From Opitutia bacterium (GTDB taxonomy: Bacteria; Verrucomicrobiota; Verrucomicrobiia; Opitutales; Opitutaceae), in contig CANJVR010000004.1 in NCBI GenBank assembly GCA_947478395.1, positions 160,001-224,000 on the forward strand: 64,000 nucleotides of DNA, written 5' to 3'. Positions 4,536 through 20,984 of the stretch are shown one piece after another (position 1 is the first letter of the stretch; each line of letters starts with the position of its first letter). The notes below the pieces were generated by a model, which saw only the letters and a list, made by a program, of their open reading frames with translations, ran no database searches and had not been told where the DNA came from. Position numbers and translations under genes: made by a program.

Positions 4536-5849
4536 GTGAAAAATGAAATAAACATCAGATTCCGCTACCCATACCGTTTCCAAATTTCCCATTTAGGGGA
4601 CATGATTAGCTGTTGCAGCATAACACGGTCGTCATTCTGGCAGACGCTCGCTCACCTCAAGTCGTGGTCCAAACGACACAAGGCAGACAAGGAATACTTT
4701 GGCCTCCAGAATGGATCATGTCCGCTACAACCATTCCTCCACGCCATCTACGATGACCTCGGCTACTACGAGGCTGTCCACGGACTTCTCGCTCCCTTTG
4801 ACGAGGACGACTTTCCGAAGATGATCTATGCCCGGGATCAGTGGGGACGTCAGAGAAAAGGAACGGTTGCCTACCACGTGGTCGCTTCGCCGTCTGACCG
4901 GGTGCAGGGTTTTTTCCACGCGGTTAGGGAGCCGAAATTACTCTCGGACCTATTGAAGGCAGCCCATTGGGCAATGCTGAGGCCCATCGCCGCCGAACTC
5001 GGCGGATGCCTCGTGACGGCTCCCCATTGCGACACGGCCCGATTTCACACGGAAATTCTTTGTCCGAAATACAACGCGGACGGTGCTCGAATTAGGAAGG
5101 GGTTCACCTGGGACAATAAATGGCTGTCCTGTCTAGCGTCGCGGCAAGTCGCCGGGTTAGGCGAGACCCGCTTCAAAATGGAAGCGCCGCGTTGGAACAC
5201 GACCATCGCAATGCGCCTGGAGCATGAACTCCTCGCCCTCTGCCGGAAGTTTTTCGTGACCCACGGATTGGATCTATCGAAGGCCGCCGAAGCCACCGTC
5301 ATGCTCCAAACAGAGTGGCGCGCTGAGAAGGGGAAGGCTGAAGCCCGCGAGCGCCAGGCGCAGAATCCCTCCTCGGAGAGGCCGGTCGAGTTGGTCATCC
5401 ATGCCGAACCAGAAACAGCATCCACCGTTCCCGCGTCGGTCCCCGAGGTGGAGCTTTCGAAGGCGGCATCATTGCCGTCGACAACCCCGCTCACGGTCAT
5501 ACCGGAAGTTGCGGCACTGGCACCAGCGTCGGAGAAAGAGGTGACGACGCCAGCGACACCTATCCGTCAGGTCATTCGGCAGCCCCGCCCCCCCCGGTGG
5601 GAGGAGTTGACTAAGGAACTGGTGGCTTTCCACAGCGATGATAAAAAACGAGCCCGGCCGTCTGCGTCTTGGGTTGTCGCCGACGACGGCTGGCCGCGCC
5701 TCGCGGCGGCGCTGGCGATCGCGCTGGCCGCGGCCGAGGCGAGCAACGACGAAGCGTCTGAATTCAAGAGGACATACGGCCTCTACCTATCTGCGCGGAG
5801 CCACGATCTTGATCGGACCAGTGCCGAGATGGAGCCCGAGACGCCCTGA
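4536..5849 (+). CDS. Divergent HUH relaxase-like (MOB-P/VirD2-like) protein with low-complexity C-terminus
   Basis: YHVVASPS (motif II-like) and LVTAPHCDTARFHTE (HxDT...HxH motif III-like, last His replaced by Glu). Start uncertain (GTG 4536 or ATG 4602). Confidence 0.5.
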   Translation: MKNEINIRFRYPYRFQISHLGDMISCCSITRSSFWQTLAHLKSWSKRHKADKEYFGLQNGSCPLQPFLHAIYDDLGYYEAVHGLLAPFDEDDFPKMIYARDQWGRQRKGTVAYHVVASPSDRVQGFFHAVREPKLLSDLLKAAHWAMLRPIAAELGGCLVTAPHCDTARFHTEILCPKYNADGARIRKGFTWDNKWLSCLASRQVAGLGETRFKMEAPRWNTTIAMRLEHELLALCRKFFVTHGLDLSKAAEATVMLQTEWRAEKGKAEARERQAQNPSSERPVELVIHAEPETASTVPASVPEVELSKAASLPSTTPLTVIPEVAALAPASEKEVTTPATPIRQVIRQPRPPRWEELTKELVAFHSDDKKRARPSASWVVADDGWPRLAAALAIALAAAEASNDEASEFKRTYGLYLSARSHDLDRTSAEMEPETP

Positions 5850-6291: not shown

Positions 6292-6975
6292 TTACTCCGC
6301 TTTTGCTTTCGCCCGTTCAGTTTTTAGTTTCTCCGCCACGAAAGCTTTGGCCAATTTCCGCGCTTCGCCGACGGAAGCCCCGAAGGCATCAGCGAGCATT
6401 TTTTCCGCTTCGTCGATCACACGCAGGAAGGAGGCAAAGACCACAGAGGGCGGATGCTGCTTCGAGTGGTTAAATTCATAGCCATCGTGCAGCGCTCTTT
6501 CAATTTTATCAGTGGACTCGACCAGCAGATCTCTGAGCTTCTCGTATTCCGGGTCGGCAAAATTGTCTTTTTCGGGTTGGCTTTGCTCTGGGGCGACCTG
6601 ACGCGCAATTTGCTTGGTGGTGTGGTGCGTCAACCGGGTGCCGGTCGCGATGTGCGATTTAAGGATTTTAACGGCCTGCTCTTTCTGCTCCGCGGTTTCG
6701 AGGCGGTGAAGGTAACGGTATGCGCCTTCACGGAGATGGCGTTCTAGGTGCGGAATATTCGACTCCGAGATGAACTGAACATACCCAATCAGACGATAGC
6801 CTTGGCCCTTAGAATAGCCCCAGACTTCGTCGAGGTATTCCTCGAAACTCTTGAAATCGATCGAGTAGAGCTTTTGCTCCCAGATTTCGAAAAGGCCGGC
6901 GTAGGCCTGTAGCAGGCCTTTTTCGATCGACGCTTCGATTTTTTTACGGGCAAGAAGTTTGGTTTCTGTGGACAT
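6292..6975 (-). CDS. Mobile-element hypothetical DNA-binding protein
   Basis: LFEIWEQKLY...FKSFEEYLDEVWGYSKGQGYRLI matches a helical motif common in phage/ICE proteins (LxEIxxxxLY...TFEEY...WG.S...AYRLI). Alternative start 7068. Confidence 0.6.
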   Translation of the reverse strand: MSTETKLLARKKIEASIEKGLLQAYAGLFEIWEQKLYSIDFKSFEEYLDEVWGYSKGQGYRLIGYVQFISESNIPHLERHLREGAYRYLHRLETAEQKEQAVKILKSHIATGTRLTHHTTKQIARQVAPEQSQPEKDNFADPEYEKLRDLLVESTDKIERALHDGYEFNHSKQHPPSVVFASFLRVIDEAEKMLADAFGASVGEARKLAKAFVAEKLKTERAKAKAE

Positions 6976-7173
6976 AGGTTTTATTTCTGATTTCGCGGGC
7001 GCGTGATTGCGTCCGGTAATCCTGCCTATGACGGGGGTATCCCAAAATGTAAGAGGGACTCGCCCCATTTACACTTCCTTCAGATTTGGACTCCACGGTG
7101 GGAGGCTTCGCTCCGTGTGATGTCGCCAATTGGCGACACTGCCTAAGGCGAAATCGCCTCGAAAAGGGTTCTT

Positions 7174-7478
7174 TGGTGGGCCCACTGGGATTCGAACCCA
7201 GAACCAAAGGATTCAGTTGGTCCGGACGTTTCCGTCTGGTCTGGACTATGTCTTCACCCGCCTTGGAGGCGGGGACGGGAGTTACGCGGGAATTAAGGGG
7301 ACTAAACCCCTCCGCTAGTCTCTACACCTTCCACCGCTGTAGCGGTGGCTCGGCTCGGCGTTCCCATGCCACACTCGCGGCGAAGGGTTCTCCGAATTTC
7401 CCCGTATCCCGCCGGCAATCACTCACCGGCGGCACCATTTTGATGAGTCCTCTGCTCTAACCGTTGAGCTATAGGCCC
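7174..7478 (-). tRNA. tRNA-Ile2 (CAT anticodon, lysidine type), split by a group I intron; exons 7478-7443 and 7213-7174
   Basis: Spliced product GGGCCTA TA GCTC AACGGTTA GAGC A GAGGA CT CAT | AA TCCTT TGGTT CTGGG TTCGAAT CCCAG TGGGCCC A CCA: 36+40=76 nt, complete cloverleaf with encoded CCA. G1-C72 excludes initiator tRNA; C4-G69/C5-G68 favour Ile2 over elongator Met. Confidence 0.93.
7214..7442 (-). ncRNA. Group I self-splicing intron (IC3-like, Azoarcus tRNA-Ile type), 229 nt, no ORF
   Basis: Inserted 3' of the anticodon. P1 CAU|CA-AAA-UGGUG gives a U.G pair at the 5' splice site; P2 has a GUGA loop; AAUUCGG/CCGAG P4; GAAGGUGUAGAGACUA (7331-7316) and GAAGACAUAGUCC (7255-7243) form P7; P9 has a GAAA loop; terminal omega-G at 7214. 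Confidence 0.93.
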
Positions 7479-7550
7479 AAATCCAAAGAACGCCACGTTT
7501 GTCGCCTCACACGGGGGCCACTGCAACCTTCGTTTCGCGCGGCGCTGACG

Positions 7551-7982
7551 TTATTCGTCGCGCGGGAGCTTGGCTTCTCGAATCAGCGTGCGAAATTCAG
7601 CTCTGACACGAGCGTCCTTTAAGGCTTCGAGGAGAAGTTCCGAAAGGAGCGAACTGGCCGCGCGTTCGTTCTCCTTGGCCACCGGCAAAGAGGGAATTGG
7701 CGGCTTGGGAGCGATACGCGGCGCGAACTCCGAAATATTCACGCCGAGGCGCTCCGCTTCCATCAATTCCAATTGGTATCCCAATTTGACCATGCTCCGG
7801 ACGTCGGCTTCCGAGTATCGCAAGACCCGTTGGTTTAGGTGCACAGGGTCGAGCTGCCGGTGGTCATTTGTGAGACGCTTGATGGTGCCATCAGAAACGC
7901 GGAACAGGAGAGCCATTTCCTTTCGAGTGAAGGACGGCGATGGTGAACCTAAATCGGTGGATGGATCTGTGAGGCCGAACAT
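7551..7982 (-). CDS. Excisionase/AlpA-like helix-turn-helix protein
   Basis: FTRKEMALLFRVSDGTIKRL...PVHLNQRVLRYSEADV; directly downstream of the integrase. Confidence 0.75.
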   Translation of the reverse strand: MFGLTDPSTDLGSPSPSFTRKEMALLFRVSDGTIKRLTNDHRQLDPVHLNQRVLRYSEADVRSMVKLGYQLELMEAERLGVNISEFAPRIAPKPPIPSLPVAKENERAASSLLSELLLEALKDARVRAEFRTLIREAKLPRDE

Positions 7983-8049
7983 CTAACCCCCTTTGAATCG
8001 GTTCGAGCGGTTGTCCAAGGAATGTTGGCCGATCGCACCCATAGGATGC

Positions 8050-8078
8050 AAAAAGGCCGACCCGGCTTCGGGTCGGCC
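8050..8078 (-). terminator. Intrinsic terminator after integrase
   Basis: Perfect stem GGCCGACCCG / CGGGTCGGCC with 4-nt loop, followed by T5 on the minus strand. Confidence 0.75.
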
Positions 8079-8102
8079 AATCTTGCTGGAGCTACCCGGC
8101 GC

Positions 8103-9227
8103 TTAAGCGGCGCCCTTTTCTTTCCCCTTGGGAAGAAGGGCCCCCAAGCCCGTCGTGGTTTTCCGACGCTCGGCCACGTAGTAGGTCGCCGTGATCTTTA
8201 TTGAGGCGTGGCGAAGGCTTTTGCTCGCAGCGACCAAACCCCATTTTTCATTAATCAACGAGCCGCACTCTTTCCGCAATGTGTGTAGGGGGCACCGCGC
8301 TTTGACACCGTGATCGCGCAGCCACTGATTGAGGTTCTTAAAGCTACTTTCACAGCGGTAGTGCCGGTAGTTTTTCGGGCGCCGTGAGTTGTTCTTAGAC
8401 TCAACGATGTAGGGCCCCGTGGCGCGTTCTTTGAAGATTCGAAGGACATCCAGGAGTTCCTGCTCGATCGCGACGTCCCCGCCCGACGCGACGGTCTTCA
8501 GCTCGAGGAATTCATGCGCTTCAATACTCATATGGCTGCGCTCCCAGTTGATCCACGTCCACAGGGCCTGATCAATTTCCCCGCGACGCAGACCTAGGAG
8601 GAGACCAAAAATGAAGATTTTGAATTCCTCAGGGCGGTCGGTCGACAGCTCGGCGATCGCCAAACGCGTGAGTGCCTGGGCCTCGATTTTCGAAGAGTAG
8701 GCAAAGCCGCTCAAGCCTTTCACCGACATCGATACCTCGTGGAATGGCATGGGTGGGACGATGACGCCCAACTGCGCGATTTCCTTGATTACTTCCTCAC
8801 GGAACAGCGCCCGCAAATTGCGGATATATCCGTCCATTGTGACTTGAGCGTGCCTAAGTTGCACGGGTTGGTCGACGAACCGGGCGAGGTATGCCCGCTT
8901 GAAGTCCTTCACCTTGGTAAGCGTGATCGTATTCAGCAACTGCTCGTCAACCTTCGCTCTCCATTCCCGAATCCGAACGCCCTTGGCTTTGCCAGAGCCG
9001 ATACCGGACATCCAAGCTACCAGGGTTCTGAGTTTCGAAATGTAGCTGATAAAGGTTGTCCCCGACGTGAAGAGACCCGTGAGAAGAGCCAGGCGAATAA
9101 ATTCGCCGACCGTGAGAACGGGAGCCGGTTTAACGGCCTTCGGTTTGTAACGCTTTACGGTTTCATCCCAGCCTACGCCGATGACGCTGAGATAGATCTC
9201 ACGGGCCTTACGGGCTGCGGCGTCTGA
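8103..9227 (-). pseudogene. Tyrosine recombinase/integrase, 5'-truncated
   Basis: Catalytic motifs GLRRGEI, LKT, HTLRK, LRH...TATYY. The frame stays open upstream of ATG 9011 (DAAARKAREIYLSVIGVGWDETVKRYKP...TVGEF) with no start codon, runs into the repeat at 9229 and meets TGA at 9248-9246. Confidence 0.8.
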
Positions 9228-9228
9228 G

Positions 9229-9411
9229 GGAAGCCCCGGACGGGGTCAGGTTGCCCATTTCCCCCTGTTGACCGGAGACCGTTCGAGGAGCTGCGGGCGG
9301 AAGTTTTAGGCTGCGGCTCCGAATAGCTTTTCAAGCGACGGTCGACGCGGAGATTTTCTTGGAGTCACTTCGCGCTCCGTTGGTCGGGGCGGGAAATGGG
9401 CAACCTGACTC
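9229..9411. mobile_element. Small MITE-like element with 19-bp perfect inverted repeats
   Basis: GTCAGGTTGCCCATTTCCC (9245-9263) and GGGAAATGGGCAACCTGAC (9391-9409); no ORF; abuts the integrase break. Confidence 0.65.
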
Positions 9412-9599
9412 CCTCCGACAACTCAATTTATTTTTTCACAAACCGAATTTCAAATTCATCTTAATTGTTATATAACCGAATTAAATCACTCGTCGAAAAT
9501 TTAATCGAATAAGGGGTAGCCGACATATAACAAATCACATCGCTAAAAAGTTTTTCGGAAGCACATTAGCATCCTTCGTGAGTCACTATATTGCGAAAT

Positions 9600-10469
9600 T
9601 TACGCGAGCTCAACGCGGGCGTTTGTTTCAATTATGTTTTTTAACCAAGCACGGAGTTTTTTCTGATCAAAGCAGCCCGCAATTTCCACATTGCCAGCGA
9701 TATATCCAGTCGCGCCGTCAAGCTGTAGTTCCGTAACGGTTACTCTTGCGACTTCGTCGTCACAAGTCAAAAGGTCTGGTCTTGCTGAAAAATCGAGTAT
9801 AAAAGTAAAGAAATATGTTGAGTTTGTATCAACCGATGATTTGCCATAAATTTCCTTGGCGCTACCACTCATGTTGCGATATCCGATTTGCTCCTTGTAA
9901 TATACCGCAAACTCTTTGAGGTCAGATATAGCTACTTCATCATACATGACTTTAACTCCATCTTGAAAGACAAAGTCCGCTGGAGTTCCATTGCTATTCC
10001 AGCCTTCCTCATACATGTTGAACATGTTGCTATCAAACAGTTGCTGGATTGAATCTTCCTCGTAGTTTTTTGGTATTTTCATATCAATTTCGTTTTCTTC
10101 GTCTTCAACTTGATTTTCTACTACTAATTCTTCTAAACTATTTTCATCAGTATCCGGTTTCGACATAAGACTAGATTTACCTGAGGCATTAATTTTTGTT
10201 TTTCCAGACAACCATGCGGGCAAGGTCTCGACGGTTTCAGCTAAATATCCATCCGCTATTTTTCTTAACACAAAGTTCTTATTGTAAGTTAACGCTAAAT
10301 ATAAATTCCAAAACCATAATAGGAAAACATTAGGAATAATATTTAAGACGAAAACCTTGGGCTCGCCTTTTAGTAATGGGATAAATGAACCGATCAATAG
10401 GCAGCCGATATTAAAACCAATTGGCGCATATACATCCTTTTTTTCGGGGTGGGTTAATTTGATTTTCAT
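9600..10469 (-). CDS. AT-rich membrane protein: DUF2628/HrgC-like N-terminus plus acidic C-terminal domain
   Basis: APIGFNIGCLLIGSFIPLLKGE...YNKNFVLRKIADGY; AT-rich codon usage unlike the host. Confidence 0.55.
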   Translation of the reverse strand: MKIKLTHPEKKDVYAPIGFNIGCLLIGSFIPLLKGEPKVFVLNIIPNVFLLWFWNLYLALTYNKNFVLRKIADGYLAETVETLPAWLSGKTKINASGKSSLMSKPDTDENSLEELVVENQVEDEENEIDMKIPKNYEEDSIQQLFDSNMFNMYEEGWNSNGTPADFVFQDGVKVMYDEVAISDLKEFAVYYKEQIGYRNMSGSAKEIYGKSSVDTNSTYFFTFILDFSARPDLLTCDDEVARVTVTELQLDGATGYIAGNVEIAGCFDQKKLRAWLKNIIETNARVELA

Positions 10470-10765
10470 AAACTTTTTTAAGGCTTAAAATAGATCATAA
10501 CGGTGTTTGGCGACGCGGTATTCCGAAAGGGGCAAATCGAATAAGGGGGTGATCGATTCGTAATCTATCAAACAGCTGCATTTTTTCGCGTAAAGCCAAT
10601 TAGGCTCTTCTTAAACTATTGTTCGAAATTACTTGCTGCCCATATAACGTAACTGTGCATCAACGATATGCACTAATAAGCTAATAATAATTAGGCGATT
10701 TCACACTCGAACAAGCGTCCTCCTGACCTTTTCACAAAGAGCGAAGCTCTAGTTCATACCGACTT

Positions 10766-11235
10766 TCACGGTCCTGTTTTCTTGCTTTCCCCCTGAAGTA
10801 TTTTTCGTAGCTCAGACGCAACATCTGCATCTTGGAGCATACCTAAATCCTGAGCCAAGACTACGACGTTTTTACTCCTCAATCCCACAGCAAACCCCGA
10901 CAAATAACCGCCGCTTCCTGCGCTGCGAACGGAAATGATCAGTACATTGGTCGAATCACCATTAAGGTCGAGCAACTCAACCTTTTCAATCTGACCATCC
11001 CGTTCTATGAGGATTCCACCCGCAAAATCATCGGCGTCTAATCCTTTTTTCGCCTCTTCGTCGTCAGCTTGGTAAAACCTAACTGTGAAAGACCCAGTTG
11101 AGAGCGGTTCGAAGTTACCTTCCGCAACAACCGCCGTCAGCTCCTTGGAAATCCTGATTTTTTTCACATATCGGCCTTCGGCTCCTTGAGTTGAAGCCAT
11201 AAAACAAAGAGCTAAAAAAATAGGGCCTATTTCAT
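10766..11235 (-). pseudogene. PliI-family lysozyme inhibitor with frameshifted signal peptide
   Basis: VVAEGNFEPLSTGSFTVRFY...RDGQIEKVELLDLNGD...VRSAGSGGYLS. ATG AAA at 11235 is followed by TAG; one extra A would give MKIGPIFLALCFMASTQGA|EG. Confidence 0.7.
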
Positions 11236-11554
11236 AGTTGATTCAAAGATTACCAGACTAGCTGAGACATTTACAGGTACACCCCAAAGAAATTAGCCCC
11301 AGCAAAGCCCGTCTAAGCCAAAATATGGCAGAAATCGCAAATCTCGCAGTCCAGCCTCAAGTCCGCTTTCTCTGCACTCATTTCCAATCCGTTCCACTCA
11401 TCCATTTTTAATTCGAAGTAAGAACGTCGCCCTGCCCCCGATTGAATTAAACTTTTTTGGGATCTTTTGGAAATACAGGGGCGTCTAGGTGGTGATTACT
11501 CGGAAGGTGGGTCCAAAAATAAATTTAAGCCGATAAAGTTCTTGATTTAATTAA

Positions 11555-12058
11555 ATGTCCGTGAACGTTCAAAATAGTACCAATCACGAAGGTTTTGCTA
11601 GGGAGCCGTTAAAAATTATGGATCAAACAACAATTCTCAAAGAGGTGTCCGAATCAGTGGAAGCTTATCGAGAACATCCAGAATTCTTCGACGATGCTGA
11701 AATCACCATGGCGGCTGTTCGATATAGCGGAAGTTCGCTTGAGTTCGCCTCAACGAGACTTCGAGATAATGATAAGATTGTGCTTGCCGCTATAAGCGAA
11801 GATAAAGACGCACTAGAATTTGCGTCAGACCGGTTAAAGGCGCATAAAAAGACCGTTTTACATTCTGTCAAAATCTGGGGGTCTTCGCTACAATTCGCGA
11901 GTCTTGATCTTCAGGGTGATAAAACTTTAGTTCTTACGGCAATCAAAGTGAGAGCATCTGCCATTCAATACGCTTCCCCTGAATTAAAAGCCGATAAAGC
12001 GTTTATTAAGTCGGCTAGGAAGATTGACGACGGTGTCGATGAATATTTGCAAGTTTGA
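11555..12058 (+). CDS. DUF4116-repeat protein
   Basis: Repeated ~25-aa units (AVRYSGSSLEFASTRLRDNDKIVLAA / ALEFASDRLKA / SLQFASLDLQGDKTLVLTA / AIQYASPELKADK). Start may be 11618. Confidence 0.8.
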   Translation: MSVNVQNSTNHEGFAREPLKIMDQTTILKEVSESVEAYREHPEFFDDAEITMAAVRYSGSSLEFASTRLRDNDKIVLAAISEDKDALEFASDRLKAHKKTVLHSVKIWGSSLQFASLDLQGDKTLVLTAIKVRASAIQYASPELKADKAFIKSARKIDDGVDEYLQV

Positions 12059-12119
12059 ATGTAGGTTCTCATTGGCGAAACTAGTCATCAGGTGTAGAGA
12101 CCAGCTGCGGTGATCCCCC

Positions 12120-12284
12120 GAAATCCGGGCCGATCCGAAAATCAGAGAGAACCGTCGAAAGATCCTTCTGCAGTATTGCGAGGTCGATGCGGCCGCAATG
12201 GTCATGATCTGGAAGCATTGGATTACGCAGCTGCTTGAACTGACCGCAAAAACTAAACAACCCCCTCCCATTTATGTAACCTAA
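12120..12284 (+). pseudogene. Isolated C-terminal remnant of a DUF2779-type protein
   Basis: Hand translation EIRADPKIRENRRKILLQYCEVDAAAMVMIWKHW..., preceded by an in-frame TGA at 12111 and lacking a start. Confidence 0.55.
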
Positions 12285-12334
12285 TTTAGTTGATCCATTG
12301 TCCAAAGGAAGGGGTCTGCCTCACAAATATACAC

Positions 12335-13210
12335 ATGAATTTACATCCAATCAACGAGTCCATACTGGATTTGTATCAGTCATATCGTGACGGCAGTACA
12401 AGTGATCTTTTTGACCTGAAAATTCCTATGTTTTACGGAGTAATGGCACCTCGAAAGATGCTCATAATTGGCGCAAACCCATCCTTTTCCAAGGCAGAGG
12501 AACAGCATGAAAACATCATCAAATGGTCTGCGGAGCTGAATGGGCAGAAGCCATTTAAAACAAAGGAGGACTTTGATACTTTTTTTGGGTCAAGAGATAA
12601 TTTAGACGCAGTAGACAAAAACACAGCAGTGCAAGTTCAGGAGCTTTTCGTTCTGAAGTACAAAAATTATTTCCATGAAAAACTCGATCATCTTGCATAC
12701 GCGTGGGGGCAAGATAGAGAATCTATCAGTTTCAACACTCGGCCATGGAACTATATAGATGTCTTTCAGAGTAGGATCACGAAGTTGGACGAGCTGAAAC
12801 GGCGAATTCAGAAGGAGGAGCGGTCACCCAAGGTCGCGGGAACCACGTTCCAGAAGGAATCGGTAAAGATGGCATGTGAGCTTGTTTTGTCTGCTAATCC
12901 CGAGGTTATCGTAGTTTTGAACGCGTATTCCTGCAAGGTTTTGACGAAGCATGCTAGTGACCTTTTCCCTCCGATGTGCAGAGTCGACGTTAGGACAGGA
13001 GCCGTGCACAGCAACGGCCGGAATGGGCAGCTACGCGGTGTTCCAATATTTTACGCTTCGATGGTCACAGGACAGAGGGCCATCGACTTGGGAAGTTATC
13101 TGCGCTTGCAATGGTCAATAGCCCACGCGTCTGGCCGTCTCGCTCAGGATCCTTCCTGGAAACCTGTGCTTCCGAGCAAGGACGATGGTGAAAATACTCA
13201 TGATTCTTAG
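12335..13210 (+). CDS. Hypothetical protein, possible uracil-DNA-glycosylase-superfamily fold
   Basis: MLIIGANPS near the N-terminus, ANPEVIVVLN, C-terminal TGQRAIDLGSYLRLQWSI. Confidence 0.5.
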   Translation: MNLHPINESILDLYQSYRDGSTSDLFDLKIPMFYGVMAPRKMLIIGANPSFSKAEEQHENIIKWSAELNGQKPFKTKEDFDTFFGSRDNLDAVDKNTAVQVQELFVLKYKNYFHEKLDHLAYAWGQDRESISFNTRPWNYIDVFQSRITKLDELKRRIQKEERSPKVAGTTFQKESVKMACELVLSANPEVIVVLNAYSCKVLTKHASDLFPPMCRVDVRTGAVHSNGRNGQLRGVPIFYASMVTGQRAIDLGSYLRLQWSIAHASGRLAQDPSWKPVLPSKDDGENTHDS

Positions 13211-13341
13211 GTAAGTTACGGGGCCTAGTGGCACAGCTGCACGGTGGCCAATTCCTGTCACTGAAATCCAGTCATTGGGTTCGGCTATGACCGTAACCGC
13301 GATCACGCCGTTGGGGCCGGACGCTGGACAACGTCTTCGTC

Positions 13342-13480
13342 GGAAGCCCCGGACGTGGTCAAGTTGCCCATTTCCCCTATTGACCGGAGAATTTTCGAGA
13401 AGCTGCGGGCGGAACATTGCGTGGCGAAGGCTAAGGCCGCGATCGAGCGTTTTTCAAACGACGTGGATATTTTCCATGGC
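13342..13480. repeat. Second, degenerate direct copy of the 9229 element (no right IR seen)
   Basis: GGAAGCCCCGGACGTGGTCAAGTTGCCCATTTCCCCTATTGACCGGAGA...GAGAAGCTGCGGGCGGAA closely matches 9229-9302; weaker similarity continues to ~13480. Confidence 0.8.
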
Positions 13481-13518
13481 TCGTGATCGAGCTGGAGGCG
13501 CGGAGGATAAGTGGCTTA

Positions 13519-13596
13519 ATCTCCGCGCAAAATGCGGAGATGGTTCTTGTTTGTGCGGAGATAACGGAGCAGATTCGCCGCATAACCTGCGGAGAT
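13519..13596 (+). promoter_or_regulatory. TGCGGAGAT operator-like array upstream of fic
   Basis: ATCTCCGC-N7-GCGGAGAT palindrome (13519-13541), TGCGGAGAT at 13554, and ATTCGCCGCA-N5-TGCGGAGAT ending 4 nt before the ATG. Confidence 0.6.
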
Positions 13597-13600
13597 TAAA

Positions 13601-14719
13601 ATGTACATCCACCAACGCCAAAATTGGCCTCACTTTACCTGGAACGATGCCGTCATCACAACGCTGCTGAGCGATGTTCGGCATGCTCAAGGTCGCCTGC
13701 TCGGCCAGATGGAAGCTTTGGGTTTCCCTCTTCGACAGGAAGCGTCCTGGGTGACCCTCACTCAGGACGTGCTCAAGACAAGCGAGATTGAGGGTGAGAA
13801 ACTGGATACGCAGCAGGTGCGCTCTTCCATTGCTCGGCGCATGGGTATTGAGATCGCGGCTTTACCCTCTGTGGATCGCAGCGTTGAGGGGATCGTTGAA
13901 GTCATGCTTGATGCAACGGGCCGCCAGCGGGAGCCGCTGGATGAAGAGCGGCTTTTTGGGTGGCATGCCGCCTTGTTTCCCACGGGAAGAAGCGGCTCTG
14001 TGCGCATCACGGTCGGGAATTGGCGCAACGAGCAGAGCGGTCCGATGCAAGTCGTCTCGGGCGCCGATGGACGCGAAAGAGTTCATTTCGAGGCGCCTTC
14101 GCACGACAGGCTAAAACCTGAAATGACCCAGTTTCTCGCATGGCTAAATTCCACGCCGGCAACGGATCTAGTCCTCATGTCTGCCCTGGCGCATTTCTAC
14201 TTCGTTACGATCCATCCCTTCGACGACGGCAATGGGCGTATCGCCCGCGCCATTGCGGACATGATCCTTGCTCGCTCGGAGAACAGCTCACAGCGGTTTT
14301 ATAGCATGTCTGCTCAAATCCTGCAGGAGCGAAACGCTTACTACGATATCCTGGAGGCCTGTCAGCGAGGCGGCCTGAACATCTCGGCTTGGATTGAATG
14401 GTATCTTAACTGCCTCAAACGGGCGATAGGTTCGTCAAACGAAGTCCTCGGCCTCGTCTTGAAAAAGGCGACATTTTGGCAGCGTCGCGAGGGCGAGACG
14501 TTCAACGAGCGTCAGCGGGCCATCCTCAATCGGCTGTTCGACGGTTTTGAGGGAAAGCTCACCTCGTCCAAATGGGCGAAGCTGGCAAAATGCTCTCAGG
14601 ATACGGCTAACCGTGACATTTCTGATCTGATAAAGCGGCGGGTCCTCGTGAAAGATGAAGCGGGGGGGCGCAGCACCAGCTATTCGCTAAAAGAAGGTGC
14701 CGAGCCGGCAAAATCCTAG
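13601..14719 (+). CDS. Fic family protein (DUF4172 N-terminus, C-terminal HTH)
   Basis: MYIHQRQNWPHFTW start, TSEIEGE inhibitory motif, HPFDDGNGRIAR Fic motif, SQDTANRDISDL HTH. Confidence 0.95.
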   Translation: MYIHQRQNWPHFTWNDAVITTLLSDVRHAQGRLLGQMEALGFPLRQEASWVTLTQDVLKTSEIEGEKLDTQQVRSSIARRMGIEIAALPSVDRSVEGIVEVMLDATGRQREPLDEERLFGWHAALFPTGRSGSVRITVGNWRNEQSGPMQVVSGADGRERVHFEAPSHDRLKPEMTQFLAWLNSTPATDLVLMSALAHFYFVTIHPFDDGNGRIARAIADMILARSENSSQRFYSMSAQILQERNAYYDILEACQRGGLNISAWIEWYLNCLKRAIGSSNEVLGLVLKKATFWQRREGETFNERQRAILNRLFDGFEGKLTSSKWAKLAKCSQDTANRDISDLIKRRVLVKDEAGGRSTSYSLKEGAEPAKS

Positions 14720-14809
14720 AACGGATCAGCGTCGAAAATCCGCGGTCGCTGCGATTGAAGTCGTCAAAAGTGGTCAGCGGTTGGCGCTGCTGCGGAATGT
14801 AGGCAGGCC

Positions 14810-14845
14810 TTGACTACTCGCACATTTAAATGTCATTTTAAGTGC
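14810..14845 (+). promoter_or_regulatory. Probable TA promoter/operator
   Basis: TTGACT at 14810 and perfect palindrome ACATTTAAATGT (14822-14833) just before ATG 14846. Confidence 0.5.
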
Positions 14846-15205
14846 ATGGAAACTGTTTCTGTCACCACCGCCCGCCAGAATCTTGGGGCTTGGTTGGCCC
14901 GCGCCGCCAAGGGCGAGGAAATCGGCATCATCTCCGGCTCGCAAATCATCGCCCTGCGCCCGGTGGCAGTAACCGCAGCAGACTACGCCTTCCAGGAATA
15001 CGGCCTCAAGCCGGACGAGATGAACCGCATCACCGCTAAGCTCCATGAAGAAGTTTCTACCGCCGCCGCCATCCCCTACGCCGGCAGCCTCGCCGCCGCC
15101 CTCGCAGCAGCAGGTGCTGCTGACCAAAAGGTTTCTCGCCCTAGCAAAGGATCTGCCCGCCACCGCGCATCCAGCAATCGACGCCGCGCTCCGCTTACTG
15201 CCTGA
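14846..15205 (+). CDS. Phd/YefM-like antitoxin
   Basis: METVSVTTARQNLGAWLARAAKGEEIGII is a typical Phd N-terminus. Confidence 0.75.
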   Translation: METVSVTTARQNLGAWLARAAKGEEIGIISGSQIIALRPVAVTAADYAFQEYGLKPDEMNRITAKLHEEVSTAAAIPYAGSLAAALAAAGAADQKVSRPSKGSARHRASSNRRRAPLTA

Positions 15206-15386
15206 AACGTGGGGACGACCCCACGCGCACCGGGGCGCTAGCGTGCGCGTGCTCTCACGCGGTGCCTATGAGATACGGGCCGGCCTTGCCCTACGTATCA
15301 TTTTTCTACCCATCGGCGACGAATTGCGCTGCGACTTCATCGGCACTCACGCCGAGGTTGAACGGTACCTGCGGAATCGCGCTTGA
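15045..15386 (+). CDS. RelE/ParE-superfamily toxin-like protein
   Basis: VLLTKRFL...YEIRAGLALRIIF...FIGTHAEV; overlaps the antitoxin. True start may be the GTG near 15114. Confidence 0.65.
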   Translation: MKKFLPPPPSPTPAASPPPSQQQVLLTKRFLALAKDLPATAHPAIDAALRLLPETWGRPHAHRGASVRVLSRGAYEIRAGLALRIIFLPIGDELRCDFIGTHAEVERYLRNRA

Positions 15387-15624
15387 GCGTATATCCGGCC
15401 CCCCCCAAAAGCCTGTGGGCCCACCATTGTCGCGAAGTGGATTATGAAAATGAGGCGATCGAAGTCCCGAGATGAAGACCATGGCCCCCCTCTAATTAGG
15501 GGTGAAATCCCGCGCGCAGCTGCTAGTGCGTCCGCGCGGTCGCTCTCCTTTGGCCGCCCCGGTTTTACCCGTCCCCGAATCCAGCGTTCTGCGAACTATT
15601 CATCCCGTTAAAAGATTTCTCTGT

Positions 15625-18600
15625 ATGCGCTTACTCCCCGGTTATCCCATTTTTCAACGTCTCCGGCTGGTCTTGGCCGGGTTGTTTGTTGCCACGACGA
15701 TTCGGGCGGCAGAGGCCGAGGTCAGCGTTATGCGTCCCGCCGACTGGCAGGACCGCACGACGCTCACGAGCGGTTGGCAATTCGTGCGGAAGGATTTGGG
15801 CGGGGTATGGGAAACTTTGCGCAGCAAGGATCGCGCCCTCGATCTGCCCGCATGGTCCACGGTTGAACTCCCGCACTGTTACAACGCGACCGACGCCGTC
15901 GATCCGGACGGAGCGTACTACCAAGGTCCGGCGTGGTATCGCACCGAACTCAAAATTGAAAATCCCCACGTCAACGGTCGGACGCTGCTTCACTTCGAGG
16001 GGGCGGGACAAAAGGCGCAAATCTGGATCGGAGACGAGAAAGTCTCGGAGCACGTCGGCGGCTACGATGAATTCACGGTCGATATCACTGACGCGATCGC
16101 GCGGTATCGTTCCTCCGCGTTGGCGAAACTTCCCGCCACGGAATCTCGCATCGCCCCCGGATCGGTGCCGTTGGCGGTGCGGTGTGACAACTCACGCGAC
16201 CTGGAAGCGATCCCGTCAAATCTCAGCGATTTTAATCTCTATGGCGGACTCTATCGTCCGGTCCACTTGGTTTACCTGCCTGCCGGGGGTATCACGCGCA
16301 TTCACGCCAAACCGGAACGCCAATCGGACGGTTCATGGCAAGTGAGCGTCTCAGGGCGCTTTGAATCGTCGGTCGTCCAAGACGGACTGCGGTTGGTGAA
16401 AATGCACCTTGTGGGGCCGGACGGGAAAATTCTCGCGGAGGCCGAAGCGCGCATTAACTCCGCCGATGGCGAACAAGCTCTGGCGACGTTCCGGATTCCT
16501 CGCCCCGAGTTGTGGTCGCCCGAAGCGCCTTCGCTTTACGGCATCGAAGTCACGGCGGTCACGTCGGGTGGTCGGAGTCGCGCGTGGGAACGGTTCGGGC
16601 TGCGTTGGTTTGAATTTGTCGATCAAGGGCCGTTCAAGCTGAACGGCACACGCTTGTTATTGCGCGGGACGCATCGCCACGAAGATCACGTGGGTGTTGG
16701 CGCCGCGATGAGTGAGACGCAAATGGAGGCGGAGATGCGACTGATGAAATCGATGGGCGTTAATTTCATTCGGCTCGGACATTATCAACAGTCGCGCCGG
16801 ATTCTGGAGTTGTGCGACGAGTTGGGCATCATCGTGTGGGAGGAAATTCCCTGGTGTCGCGGCGGTCTTGGCGGCGACCGCTACCGCGAGCAAGCGCTCG
16901 CCATGCTGCGCGCCATGATCGGCCAGCACTTCAACCATCCCGCCGTGGTCTTGTGGGGATTGGGGAACGAGAACGACTGGCCCGGCGATTTTGAGGTTTT
17001 CGAACAGGAAAAAATTCGCGCCTTCATGAGTGAGTTGAATGCGCTGGCGCACCGGCTCGATCCCTCGCGGGTCACGGCGATCCGCCGCTGCGATTTTTGC
17101 CGCGATATTCCGGACGTTTACTCGCCTTCCATTTGGGCGGGTTGGTATCGGGGGCAGTTCACCGAGTATCGCGACGTATCGCTCAAGGAGTCGAAGACGG
17201 TGAAACATTTTCTGCACGTCGAATGGGGCGGAGACAGTCACGCGGGGCGATTTGCGGAGGATCCTTATTCCCTTTTGCGCGAGGTGAAGAAGACCGGTGC
17301 GGCGGACGAGCGCGGACTCGAGTTCATGGACATCGGCGGCAATGCGCGCGTTTCGCGCGACGGAGACTGGTCCGAGACCTACATCTGCGACCTAATCGAC
17401 TGGCATCTGAAAGAGCAGGAGAAAATGGATTGGCTCACGGGCTCGGCGATGTGGCCATTCAAGGATTTTTCGACGCCGCTGCGGCCGGACAATCCCGTCC
17501 CGTTCATGAACCAGAAGGGCGCGGTCGAGCGCGATCTGACGCCGAAGGAATCATTTTACGTTTACCAATCCTATTGGACCCGCGAGCCCATGGTGCGAAT
17601 TCACGGCCACGCGTGGGCGGTGCGCTGGGGGAAGGCCGGCGAAAAGCGGATGATGCGAATCTATTCCAATTGCGACGAAGTGGAGCTGTGGCTGAACGGG
17701 ATTTCGCAAGGCGTCCATCGGCGCGATAGTCAGGATTTTCCGGCCGCTGGGCTCCGCTGGCAGTTGGCGTTCGAGGAAGGAATGAACACCGTGCGCACGG
17801 TCGGACGCATAAAAGAAAAAACGGTGAGCGACGAAGTCACCTTTCGGTACGAGACCAGGGCGCCCGGGAAGCCCCACCATTTGCGGCTGCAGGCCTTCGC
17901 GCTGCCCAATCAAGCGTGGCGCATCCAGGCTGAGCTGCTCGACGCCGCCGGCGTCGTCTGCGTCGAGGCGCGCGATTTCGTTCGTTTTGGCCAGACCGGC
18001 GACGGGAAATTATTGGACAATCTGGGTACCGCGCGTGGCTCGCGTTACGTCCAGTTTGCCAACGGTCGCGCCCAGATCGATATCGTGCTCGCCGCGTCGA
18101 TGCATGCGGTCGTGAGTGCGCAGGTGACGGGGATGCCCACCGCATTTATGGGCGTGGACCAGCCGGATGAATCCAAAATTAAGGCGGCAGCGCGGTTGCA
18201 GGCGTCTCCCTCGGCTCAGCTCTTCGCGGACGTGGTAAAAATCGAACGTGACCGCGCCTTGCGGCTGGGGGCCGTGGCGATGAAGGCCGAGCCCGTTTCG
18301 ATCCGATCGGTGCCGTTGCCCGAATTTGCGCGCAAGAGTGGGGCGGTGCCCGGCGACTTTCTTTCCATGGGCGACTACTGGTGGCCGAATCCGGCGAGTA
18401 AAGACGGACTGCCCTACGTGCGGCGCGATGGAGAAACCAACCCCGAGAATTTTGAAACGCATCGGCTCCAGTTGCGCGAAATGCGTGACACCGTGGCGGC
18501 GCTGGCGGCCGCATATTTGGTGTCGAACGACGCGAGCTATGCGAATCGGGCCTCGGCCTGGCTGAAAATGTTCTTCGTCGACCCGGCCACCCGCATGAAT

Positions 18601-19353
18601 CCGAATTTGCGTTTCGCCCAGGCGATTCCCGGCGTGTCGACGGGTCGCGGTATCGGCATTATCGACACCCTGCATTTGGCGGAAGTCGCGTTGGCCGTCG
18701 ATGCCATCGCCTCGGCCCCGGGTGTCGACGTCGATACGCTCGAGGGCGTCAGGCATTGGTTTGCCGACTATCTCCATTGGATGTTGACCGATCCCAATGG
18801 AAAGGAAGAGGGCGCGACCAAGAACAACCATAGCGTGGCGTACACGCTGCAGGTGGCGGTGTTCGCGCGGTTCACGCGGGACGAGACGGCCCTGAGCCAG
18901 GCCCGGCGGACATTTTTGGAAGTTCTACTGCCGGGGCAGCTCGCGCCGGATGGAAGTTTCCCGCGCGAACTGTCTCGCACGAAGCCTTACGGTTACTCGA
19001 TCTTCCAATTGGATAATGTCGCTCTGCTCGCCGAGATCCTGTCCACGCCGGAAAAAAATCTCTGGGTCGTAAACTTGTCCGACGGACGGAGTGTGGCCCA
19101 AGCCGTCGCTTATCTTTTCCCGTACCTCAAGAATCGCGCCGACTGGCCCTTCGCCCCGGACGTCGCGCATTTCGAGGCGTGGCCGGCGCGTCAACCCGCG
19201 TTGCTGCTGGCAGGATATCGTCTCGGTCATCCTGATTATCTCGAGCTGTGGAAACAGCTGCCCTCCGATCCCGCCGACATCGAGGTGCGGCGAAATATGG
19301 CGGTTACCCAACCCTTGCTCTGGATTCAGCCGGTCACGGCCCGCGCGCCCTGA
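15625..19353 (+). CDS. Secreted GH2 glycoside hydrolase fused to alginate-lyase-fold (PL38-like) domain
   Basis: Signal peptide; LHFEGA, HVGGY, DFNLYGGLYRPV, LRGTHRHED, IRLGHY, WGLGNEN (GH2); C-terminal SMGDYWWPNP...GLPYVRRDG...NP, GRGIGIID, KNNH. Confidence 0.88.
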   Translation: MRLLPGYPIFQRLRLVLAGLFVATTIRAAEAEVSVMRPADWQDRTTLTSGWQFVRKDLGGVWETLRSKDRALDLPAWSTVELPHCYNATDAVDPDGAYYQGPAWYRTELKIENPHVNGRTLLHFEGAGQKAQIWIGDEKVSEHVGGYDEFTVDITDAIARYRSSALAKLPATESRIAPGSVPLAVRCDNSRDLEAIPSNLSDFNLYGGLYRPVHLVYLPAGGITRIHAKPERQSDGSWQVSVSGRFESSVVQDGLRLVKMHLVGPDGKILAEAEARINSADGEQALATFRIPRPELWSPEAPSLYGIEVTAVTSGGRSRAWERFGLRWFEFVDQGPFKLNGTRLLLRGTHRHEDHVGVGAAMSETQMEAEMRLMKSMGVNFIRLGHYQQSRRILELCDELGIIVWEEIPWCRGGLGGDRYREQALAMLRAMIGQHFNHPAVVLWGLGNENDWPGDFEVFEQEKIRAFMSELNALAHRLDPSRVTAIRRCDFCRDIPDVYSPSIWAGWYRGQFTEYRDVSLKESKTVKHFLHVEWGGDSHAGRFAEDPYSLLREVKKTGAADERGLEFMDIGGNARVSRDGDWSETYICDLIDWHLKEQEKMDWLTGSAMWPFKDFSTPLRPDNPVPFMNQKGAVERDLTPKESFYVYQSYWTREPMVRIHGHAWAVRWGKAGEKRMMRIYSNCDEVELWLNGISQGVHRRDSQDFPAAGLRWQLAFEEGMNTVRTVGRIKEKTVSDEVTFRYETRAPGKPHHLRLQAFALPNQAWRIQAELLDAAGVVCVEARDFVRFGQTGDGKLLDNLGTARGSRYVQFANGRAQIDIVLAASMHAVVSAQVTGMPTAFMGVDQPDESKIKAAARLQASPSAQLFADVVKIERDRALRLGAVAMKAEPVSIRSVPLPEFARKSGAVPGDFLSMGDYWWPNPASKDGLPYVRRDGETNPENFETHRLQLREMRDTVAALAAAYLVSNDASYANRASAWLKMFFVDPATRMNPNLRFAQAIPGVSTGRGIGIIDTLHLAEVALAVDAIASAPGVDVDTLEGVRHWFADYLHWMLTDPNGKEEGATKNNHSVAYTLQVAVFARFTRDETALSQARRTFLEVLLPGQLAPDGSFPRELSRTKPYGYSIFQLDNVALLAEILSTPEKNLWVVNLSDGRSVAQAVAYLFPYLKNRADWPFAPDVAHFEAWPARQPALLLAGYRLGHPDYLELWKQLPSDPADIEVRRNMAVTQPLLWIQPVTARAP

Positions 19354-19422
19354 CGATTTCGCAAAGAAAGTTTGGAATATGGGGACGGCGCAATTTCCCT
19401 CGCTCCGCCCCCTTCCTGCACC

Positions 19423-19740
19423 ATGCGCCAATCGACCACCTCTCGTTTGGCCACGATCACCGTCGCGTGGTTCGTCACGATCTTTACTGCTTTCCCCTCA
19501 ACTCAGGCAGCCGAGACTGAAACGCTCACGTCGGCGGCCCAGGTCAGGGCGCTTCCCGCGGCTGTCGCCGAGTCCAAAATCCCCGCTAAAATCCGCGGCG
19601 TTGTCACGGCGGCCGAACCCGATTGGCAGGGCAAGTTTGTCATCCAGGACGACAGCGCCGGCATCTTCGTTCAAAACGTCGGTGAGCAACCCAGGATCGG
19701 CGACTACATCGAAGTCTCGGGCTGGACCGGGAAAACCTCA
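19423..19740 (+). pseudogene. Truncated N-terminus of an OB-fold-repeat sensor protein (histidine-kinase type)
   Basis: Signal peptide plus LTSAAQVRAL...IRGVVTAAEP...FVIQDDSAGIFV...IGDYIEVSGWT; the frame then simply reads antisense into the MFS gene. Confidence 0.55.
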
Positions 19741-19763
19741 ACCGTGCTCGTGCCGCGGGGCCA

Positions 19764-20984
19764 TCAGCTGGCGTGCGGCACGTCGCGCGCGAAGCGCCAG
19801 TACACGGCCACGAACACCAGGGCGATCGCGACCGCGGCCAATTGGCTCGTGGCCAGCGAAAGACTGGTCGCCCACACCAGCGGCGCGAACACGGCGACGA
19901 GGGCTGCTCCGCCGGTTGAAATAAAACTCTGGCACGACGCCGCGAGCCCGCGCTGTTCGGGGAAAAGATCCAGTGCCAGCAGCGTCAACGTCGGGAACGC
20001 CAGCGCCATGCCGAACGAATAAAGCATAATCGGGGTTAGGCTCCACGGCAGTACCGGCGGGTGCACCCGATGAAACCAGAGATTTCCCGCGGCAGCGGCC
20101 CCCATGCACCCCACGCCCCAGCTCAAGGTTCGAGTCGGCGAGATCCGGCCGGCGAAACGCCCCGACAGCCACGCGCCCAGCGCCATGCCCACGGTCAGGG
20201 GGCCGAACAGCCAGAAGAAACCCGTGGACGCGATGCCCAGCTGATGCATGAGAAATTCCGGGGCCGCGGCCACGTACAAAAACAAACCGGCGAAACAAAA
20301 CGTTGAGCCGAGGCACACCGCTAAAAACCGCGGGGAGGAGAGCACGGTCCAGTAGGCCTTCAGAAGGTAAATTGGGTGCAGCGTCTGGCGCTTTTCCCGC
20401 GGCAAGGTCTCGGGCAGGATGCGCCGGCAGATCAGCCAGATCACGCCCGAATACAGCACGAGGAAGAAGAAAACCGACCGCCAGCCGAAGGCCGATTGCA
20501 GCCAGCCGCCGATCACCGGTGCGATCGCGGGCGCGAGGGCGAAGGTCATCGACACCTGCGACATGACCCGCTGCGCATCCGGACCGTGAAAGCGATCACG
20601 CACGATGGCGCGGCCCACGACCATGCCCGCGCCCGCGGTGGCGCCTTGCAGGGCGCGAAACACGAGCAGCATCGCGATGTTCTGCGCGCACGCGCACGCG
20701 ATCGACGCGAGGGCAAACAACGCCATGCCCCAGAGCACGACGCGACGGCGTCCGACGGCATCCGAGATCGCTCCGTGCCACAGCGTCATGAGCGCGAACG
20801 GTCCCATGTAGGCGGTGAGTGTCATCTGCAACGCGTACGGCGAGGTGTGCATCACCGTTTGAATTTCCCCCATCGACGGCAGGTACGCGTCGATCGAAAA
20901 CGGCCCGATCGCCGACAACGAAGCCAGCAACAGCGGCAGTCCGCCGCTGGTGGTGCTGGATTGAGTCGGATGCGATGATGGCAT
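19764..20984 (-). CDS. Bcr/CflA-family MFS efflux transporter
   Basis: GPFSIDAYLPS, GAISDAVGRRRV, RALQG, APAIAPVIGG, GWRSVF, LPETLP. Confidence 0.95.
   Translation of the reverse strand: MPSSHPTQSSTTSGGLPLLLASLSAIGPFSIDAYLPSMGEIQTVMHTSPYALQMTLTAYMGPFALMTLWHGAISDAVGRRRVVLWGMALFALASIACACAQNIAMLLVFRALQGATAGAGMVVGRAIVRDRFHGPDAQRVMSQVSMTFALAPAIAPVIGGWLQSAFGWRSVFFFLVLYSGVIWLICRRILPETLPREKRQTLHPIYLLKAYWTVLSSPRFLAVCLGSTFCFAGLFLYVAAAPEFLMHQLGIASTGFFWLFGPLTVGMALGAWLSGRFAGRISPTRTLSWGVGCMGAAAAGNLWFHRVHPPVLPWSLTPIMLYSFGMALAFPTLTLLALDLFPEQRGLAASCQSFISTGGAALVAVFAPLVWATSLSLATSQLAAVAIALVFVAVYWRFARDVPHAS

Follow-up and report, generated by a model that had tools for sequence, protein, structure and literature searches.

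The window analysed here, a 64,000-nucleotide (nt) stretch of the Opitutia bacterium assembly GCA_947478395.1 (contig CANJVR010000004.1, positions 160,001 to 224,000; Opitutaceae, Verrucomicrobiota), holds a gene for tRNA-Ile2, the isoleucine tRNA with a CAU anticodon, that is interrupted by a group I intron after anticodon nucleotide U36. The split gene lies inside an island of about 37 kb and is made up of the following features.

7482..7491, minus strand: boxA-like leader motif GTTCTTTGGA, which marks intron-bearing or island-type copies
7443..7478, minus strand: tRNA-Ile2(CAU) exon 1, nt 1-36, ending in CAT at anticodon position U36
7214..7442, minus strand: group I intron of 229 nt at position 36/37, class Ile2.5Ug, with omega-G at 7214 and no open reading frame (ORF) of its own
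7174..7213, minus strand: tRNA-Ile2 exon 2, nt 37-76, 40 nt, ending in ACCA with CCA encoded

An initial annotation of this DNA had proposed exons of 36 and 40 nt, a 229-nt intron at the site occupied by the Azoarcus intron in the same tRNA, and the absence of a homing endonuclease. These boundaries are confirmed: joining the exons in silico yields a complete 76-nt CAT cloverleaf, the insertion after U36 falls into class Ile2.5Ug, and 229 nt leave no room for an endonuclease. Exon 1 is identical in sequence comparison to the first 36 nt of an intronless host fragment located left of the window (G000:C4:138529-138571, G000 being this genome). Splice sites after U33 or C34 were rejected because a 229-nt intron would then not end in G.

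The gene is easily missed, as had been foreseen. ARAGORN did not call it without introns and, with introns allowed, a setting proposed for its recovery, miscalled it as tRNA-Gln(CTG), and an Rfam scan at the gathering threshold gave no match to the split gene. The model RF00028, named in advance as a check, does match over its full length (29.4 bits, E=2.1e-5 over 901 bases), yet below its gathering score of 50; in Williams 2020, group I intron matches were taken from about 18-20 bits. An nhmmer profile of 61 non-verrucomicrobial position-36/37 introns had a sole match in this genome at E<=10, which was the intron of the split gene (E=7e-13). Its folding z-score was -4.0, and none of 100 shuffles folded equally well. 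In DNA contigs from four lake runs of two studies, each of which may have supplied the assembly, the intron is covered to the same depth as its flanks, and contigs from three of the four runs cover 7449-20000 with zero differences. A DNA joint between 7213 and 7443 was rejected as a sign of splicing; its depth is about five times that of the genome and was attributed to intronless genes of other community members. No joint of an island-free allele occurred among the joints listed from the lake-run contigs, and a simple scan found neither a sigma-70 promoter nor a terminator.

The initial annotation could not see the gene as island cargo that replaces a split host gene. This is apparent from the island borders and from the genes next to the intron-bearing copy:

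G000:C4:138529-138571: host intronless tRNA-Ile2 fragment, nt 1-43, cut after nt 43
15412..15426, plus strand: tRNA-Ile2 3'-end remnant of 15 nt at the right border of the island, without the attachment (att) core
8103..9227, minus strand: tyrosine integrase (PF00589), N-terminally truncated, its frame ending at 9227
9229..9420, no strand assigned: element of about 190 nt with terminal inverted repeats, sitting where the integrase frame ends
7551..7982, minus strand: HTH_17 protein (Pfam E=4e-4, below cut-off), resembling an excisionase and encoded between integrase and tRNA

At the left end, 29 kb from the split gene, the second copy of exon 1 is inverted and intronless, continues for 7 nt of exon 2 and then stops. 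From C4:138529 to window position 15426 the GC content is mostly below that of the flanks, and beyond the right-border remnant it is back to about 0.61. Over 116 nt, the left junction shares 85% identity with its counterpart in the element of a relative, G271, and it bears paired TTGGACAC repeats that are the same in G271, G063 and G217. The right-border remnant carries the T-stem allele of the congeners (CCCTG) and not the CCCAG of the intron-bearing copy. This genome has kept the core CTCATAATCC at the left junction; its sole other occurrence is an unrelated one on contig C1. The window integrase, about 0.6 kb from the complete intron-bearing gene, is 54% identical to residues 79-447 of the 457-aa integrase of G271, in which a 158-aa ORF occupies the same place as the HTH_17 gene. 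Contig C7 and positions 13342-13414 of the window hold related copies of the inverted-repeat element.

The intron-bearing gene is the sole complete tRNA-Ile2 gene in this assembly, which is 98.8% complete, consists of 9 contigs and holds 44 uninterrupted tRNA genes, none of them a further complete Ile2 gene. Two of these have a CAT anticodon, and by identity rules we take them to be the elongator and initiator methionine tRNAs; the C4-G69 and C5-G68 pairs of the split gene are those of Ile2. A search for an intronless copy, as suggested by the initial annotation, found only the truncated host fragment (nt 1-43) and the 15-nt 3' remnant. TilS is encoded (149 bits, cut-off 93.6), and ATA accounts for 1335 of 34552 isoleucine codons (3.9%) in 1317 long ORFs, which serve as a proxy and contain some false frames. 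Given the truncated integrase and the missing right core, AUA decoding in this organism probably depends on splicing.

The initiator-type tRNA (G000:C9:733-809) has a U1-A72 pair, whereas initiators usually show a C1-A72 mismatch. In five congeners (G002, G011, G012, G013, G017) no Ile2 gene was found by BLAST or by patterns, one of which is weak and also missed their Met gene; TilS is present in four of these five, and their Ile2 gene possibly lies unassembled at an island junction.

The structure of the intron was drawn from the window's own sequence as 63 hand-assigned pairs and compared across 12 aligned verrucomicrobial position-36/37 introns. Three of its elements are located as follows.

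7433..7445, minus strand: P1 helix with a U36.G wobble at the 5' splice site; U.G in 12/12, the next pair changing from C-G to U-A in 2/12
7316..7322, minus strand: 5' strand of P7, pairing with 7248-7243; 6/6 pairs invariant in 12 homologues
7282..7315, minus strand: P7.1/P7.1a insertion of 34 nt between P7 and P3, not in betaproteobacterial (Azoarcus-like) introns

Paired cells amounted to 95.5%, compared with 35-43% in slid controls, and 18 of the 63 pairs changed on both sides, a number reached by 0/500 shuffles; these controls are favourable, because the structure was drawn from the same sequence and the aligned rows are related. Covariation was found in P2, P3, P6a, P7.1a, P9.0 and P9. 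The U(-1).G pair of P1 and the omega-G 3' end occur in all 12 homologues, and the P7 core, whose 5' strand we take to be the guanosine-binding site, is invariant, in agreement with what had first been read from the sequence. P3 and P7 are 100% paired, with a compensatory change of P3 in 3/12, while P4 is 93% and P6 100% paired, so that both the P3-P7 pseudoknot and the P4-P6 domain are present. The P9 of the window's intron differs from that of its homologues. Judged from this anatomy and from established chemistry, the intron appears to be a working group I ribozyme.

Its classification as a compact IC3-type intron held only in part, namely for group I membership and the Azoarcus site. We take subgroup IC3 to imply an Azoarcus-like compact periphery and no insertion between P7 and P3. 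The window's intron is less compact than that of Azoarcus and carries the 34-nt P7.1 insertion at this very place, and the IC3 assignment is therefore not established. The insertion is a property of the whole verrucomicrobial group, as the spacer from P7 to J8/7 measures 57-68 nt in 12/12 of its introns, whereas it measures 31-43 nt in 56 other bacterial position-36/37 introns. The P7.1 domain shows one compensatory pair, G-C to A-U in 4/12.

The same architecture recurs in relatives. In the family sample, 37 of 251 genomes (about 15%) bear an intron in this gene, and host-fragment counts over these 37, taken from the matches listed, are lower bounds. The intron-bearing copy is flanked by both halves of a host gene in at least five of them (G063, G217 on two contigs, G252, G255, G271), and one host half was found in at least three (this genome, G130, G214). 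The halves overlap in the 10-bp core CTCATAATCC, which is cut by both intron sites, after U33 and after U36, and two separate intron clades occupy the replacement copies. A related integrase adjoins the 3' half in G271, G214, G063, G217, G252 and G255 and in records L075 and L121, the G271 protein being 58% identical to that of G214. The order 3' half, integrase, leader, intron-bearing tRNA is found in G271, G214 and L075 and is the same here, but in those three the right junction is intact. Two marks of tRNA-dependent integration are seen at this locus: the host gene ends after nt 43 (C4:138571) at a short core and is not rebuilt, and the element carries a tRNA of matching isotype. Synteny gave no information: the orthologues of the adjacent uxuA-like gene have no tRNA next to them in G002, G003, G013, G017 and G023.

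At L262:1909-2055 (G063) and in L269 (G217), the first ~22 nt of the tRNA are duplicated about 145 nt upstream of a fragment or copy of the tRNA, as might result from a small element with the D arm as its target. At L266:7883-13128 (G117), genes for TniQ, TniB and a Mu-type transposase (Tn7-like) lie directly upstream of the intron-bearing copy.

The short leader motif GTTCTTT, a putative boxA, lies within about 20 nt upstream of all 33 verrucomicrobial intron-bearing genes shown, and it stays with the intron-bearing copy, not with the host fragment. Across the 251 family genomes, 28/28 independently found intron-bearing copies were leader-led, compared with 3 of 166 matches to the intronless junction. 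The latter came from 158 genomes, and 4 of 31 sampled were fragments; the intron pattern matched 29 genomes, of which G136 was dropped, having no tRNA 5' end beside its match. In a blind test, 9/9 further leader-led copies proved to bear introns, eight at U33, of which one runs off its contig, and one at U36. Altogether, 37 of 40 leader-led copies contain an intron, from two unrelated lineages. Although kinship inflates these counts, leader and intron go together in both intron lineages and in 14 genus groups. The motif precedes none of the 44 other tRNA genes of this genome and only 1 of 67 non-verrucomicrobial intron-bearing genes; similar motifs occur in the 16S leader of this genome.

A pattern scan of species genomes placed the intron in a wider distribution, with at least 122 loci plus 11 viral contigs. 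The parsed rows, comprising the scan matches listed and 10 loci from relatives with duplicates kept, include at least 76 CAT introns at position 36/37 and at least 34 at 33/34, and at least 32 have no exon 1 in view. In a tree of the 103 distinct introns among the matches listed, with bootstrap values not settled, verrucomicrobial introns make up two groups: the 12 at position 36/37 cluster together among the betaproteobacterial introns (91/98), and 25 at 33/34 have a cluster of their own (99/97). Among the matches listed, position-36/37 introns are common in Betaproteobacteria and Opitutaceae. Those congeners that have an intron carry the 33/34 type; this unrelated group I intron after U33 is present in 26 of the 37 intron-bearing genomes (L010, L012-L018 and 18 further loci) and on three viral contigs (L179, L187, L188). 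Ile2.5Ug is one of the four classical classes of bacterial tRNA introns in Williams 2020. As this class is classical and common, the intron alone is ordinary and belongs to what is already known. What is new is the setting, in which tRNA-dependent integration would go together with a replacement gene that an intron interrupts and that is stranded here.

On the viral contigs (L178-L188), intron-bearing tRNA genes were seen with insertions at 36/37, 33/34 and 34/35 (Thr-TGT); the Hausner 2014 review of bacterial group I introns describes phage introns in protein genes only. In Polynucleobacter and other Burkholderiales (L063, L066-L068, L078, L080, L092, L114), an extra 3' part of the intron with exon 2 occurs without exon 1, as if elements recombined within the intron.

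The reading that we favour, and consider quite probable, is that a working ribozyme sits in an island-borne replacement gene for tRNA-Ile2: the host gene would have been split, the island stranded, and the intron-bearing copy left as the only complete Ile2 gene. An element with a tyrosine integrase would have recombined with the host's intronless gene at CTCATAATCC, part of its anticodon arm, without rebuilding that gene, and would have brought a complete Ile2 copy with its own leader beside the integrase, as in tRNA-dependent lysogeny, the cargo gene presumably complementing the host. In the transcript of this copy, a guanosine held in P7 would attack after U36 in P1, omega-G would next take the same site, and the exons would be ligated; TilS would turn C34 into lysidine and so permit reading of AUA. 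The intron splits the 10-bp core in the cargo copy while the spliced product would be the same tRNA, and with its core cut the copy would not be an attB in DNA. A later insertion or deletion would have removed the N-terminus of the integrase and the right core, and through this loss the island would be stranded and excision probably lost. Introns lacking an endonuclease could spread in this way, as the element would destroy the intronless allele and leave the intron-bearing one. Least certain are two further steps, that the leader recruits Nus factors and that the core-breaking intron was selected as a shield from the integrase; for the latter we see about as much reason to accept it as to reject it. 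Generalized to an Opitutaceae element family that splits tRNA-Ile2, carries a Nus/boxA-assisted copy and twice recruited an intron as a shield, its decay swapping alleles and thereby fixing introns, the scheme is tentative, and we lean slightly towards doubting it.

Several observations weigh against this reading. The interior of the rRNA operon is unassembled and the assembly has gaps, so that 'only copy' holds for this assembly. Host fragments were found in only 8 of the 37 intron-bearing genomes, a lower bound; in the G004 group the genes around the copy are conserved and no related integrase lies closer than ~10 kb, and G026, G117 and G236 also have a complete intronless gene, states that may be unrelated or fully domesticated. 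Moreover, the relatives are not independent by kinship. According to Williams 2020, every tRNA group I intron known so far is situated in the anticodon loop, and a position inside the core is therefore expected anyway. Leader-led intronless copies exist in G028 and in G228, which also has a 3' half and an integrase on another contig, and the replacement tRNAs of actinophages are described without introns (PMC10865867); an intron is therefore not required.

The last three points would equally suit an intron that is a neutral passenger, having invaded an element-borne tRNA whose leader is a feature of the element, with no shielding involved, and position-36/37 introns are indeed common in Betaproteobacteria and found on viral contigs without this leader. 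A passenger accounts less well for 37 of 40 leader-led copies being intron-bearing, in two unrelated lineages, and for none of the 28 independently found intron copies being leaderless; we regard this explanation as possible, at somewhat below even probability. Causation could also run from the leader, if a Nus/boxA complex were needed to transcribe or fold the 305-nt untranslated pre-tRNA and introns persisted only in leader-led genes, island-borne or not. The associations of 28/28 and 9/9, the similar motifs in the 16S leader and the retention of the leader in copies with no sign of an island are consistent with this, as is the role of E. coli boxA/Nus in blocking Rho termination and helping rRNA folding (PMC4807359). 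Nevertheless, of 67 intron-bearing genes from outside the Verrucomicrobiota just one has such a motif in front, common inheritance of a single cassette accounts for the association equally well, and the motif is a putative boxA; we consider a causal leader rather unlikely.

Two explanations would do without integration at the tRNA gene or without splicing. The intron-bearing gene might be native and have changed place through an inversion of 29 kb, genuine or an assembly error, between the two 36-nt copies of exon 1; these copies are identical and inverted, and contigs built at k=31 break at exon 1, so the lake runs cannot phase it. However, the leader is on the intron copy, as in 33/33 relatives shown, complete elements have left junctions like the one here, the inverted order from integrase to tRNA recurs in G271, G214 and L075, and congeners bear a different intron, at U33. 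Because leader and junction sequences match those of intact elements, we consider an inversion highly improbable. Alternatively, the intron could be inactive and the gene a pseudogene, with Ile2 supplied from an unassembled copy, to which the score below the Rfam gathering threshold, the deviating P9 and the assembly gaps would conform. The invariant core, the compensated peripheral helices, the absence of another Ile2 gene among the 44 tRNAs and the presence of both TilS and AUA codons argue against it, and we rate this the least probable of the explanations.

Among known systems, the Azoarcus intron measures 205 nt and has P2-P9 and P9.0 only (PMC13168695). It shares with the window's intron the tRNA, the site after U36, the U(-1) and omega-G ends, the lack of an ORF and the P2-P9 core; in the tree the window's intron groups with betaproteobacterial position-36/37 introns and it matches their profile. 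The window's intron differs in its length of 229 nt, its extra P7.1/P7.1a and its location on an island behind a boxA-like leader, and it is only 49-60% identical to betaproteobacterial introns compared with 69-83% to 11 verrucomicrobial ones. The congeners' second, unrelated intron lies after U33 like that of the cyanobacterial tRNA-fMet site (fMet.2Ug), but in Ile2. The leader resembles rrn boxA (PMC4807359) as a short GTTCTTT in the leader of an untranslated RNA, with similar motifs upstream of this genome's 16S gene, but it precedes a single tRNA gene, and the likeness is one of sequence.

The island is closest to the tRNA-dependent lysogeny of actinobacteriophages, for which cores as short as 8-10 bp are given by Guerrero-Bustamante and Hatfull 2024 (PMC10865867), a paper in which the word 'intron' appears a single time, within the title of a reference. 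Common to both are a tyrosine integrase with arm-type repeats, a short core (10 bp here) in a tRNA gene, a host tRNA that is not rebuilt and an isotype-matched tRNA on the element. In contrast to the phages, we are dealing with a defence-cargo island in a verrucomicrobial host with no phage structural genes among the proteins scanned, whose replacement tRNA has a group I intron inside the core and whose copy in the window can probably no longer excise. No paper was found that joins group I introns with integrase attachment sites, replacement tRNAs or Verrucomicrobia, most subscription journals lying outside the search.

The cargo of the island includes a Drt4-like reverse transcriptase, a PD-Lambda-4A-like protein, a type IIG restriction-modification enzyme and a PLD-SNF2 helicase. 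The Drt4-like gene (L003:8216-9799, located on G000:C4 to the left of the window) scores 403 bits in NCBIfam against a cut-off of 450 and is flanked by the IIG restriction-modification gene and a HATPase restriction-like gene, with the PD-Lambda-4A-like gene nearby. Scans of the island proteins with Pfam, NCBIfam and PADLOC gave no phage structural families, PHROGs not having been searched and several ORFs being without family. Directly downstream of the tRNA, the ORFs 4536-5849 (437 aa) and 6292-7068 (258 aa) match no Pfam or NCBIfam family. The low-GC segment 10766-15386, which encodes a PliI lysozyme inhibitor, DUF4116, DUF4172-Fic and a Phd-like antitoxin pair, is probably left over from a second island whose entry point was the 3' end of the tRNA.

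For the family, these data mean that in about 15% of the sampled genomes (37/251) the Ile2 gene is missed or miscalled by standard annotation, and that the P7.1-bearing clade offers a natural variant of a model ribozyme. The spread and persistence of small tRNA group I introns without homing endonucleases is a long-standing puzzle. This locus suggests a concrete route, in which integration destroys the intronless allele and the intron-bearing spare becomes indispensable once the element decays. It would extend tRNA-dependent integration beyond the actinophages and suggests a use for a 'selfish' ribozyme; if true, endonuclease-less tRNA introns would gain a way to spread and become fixed.
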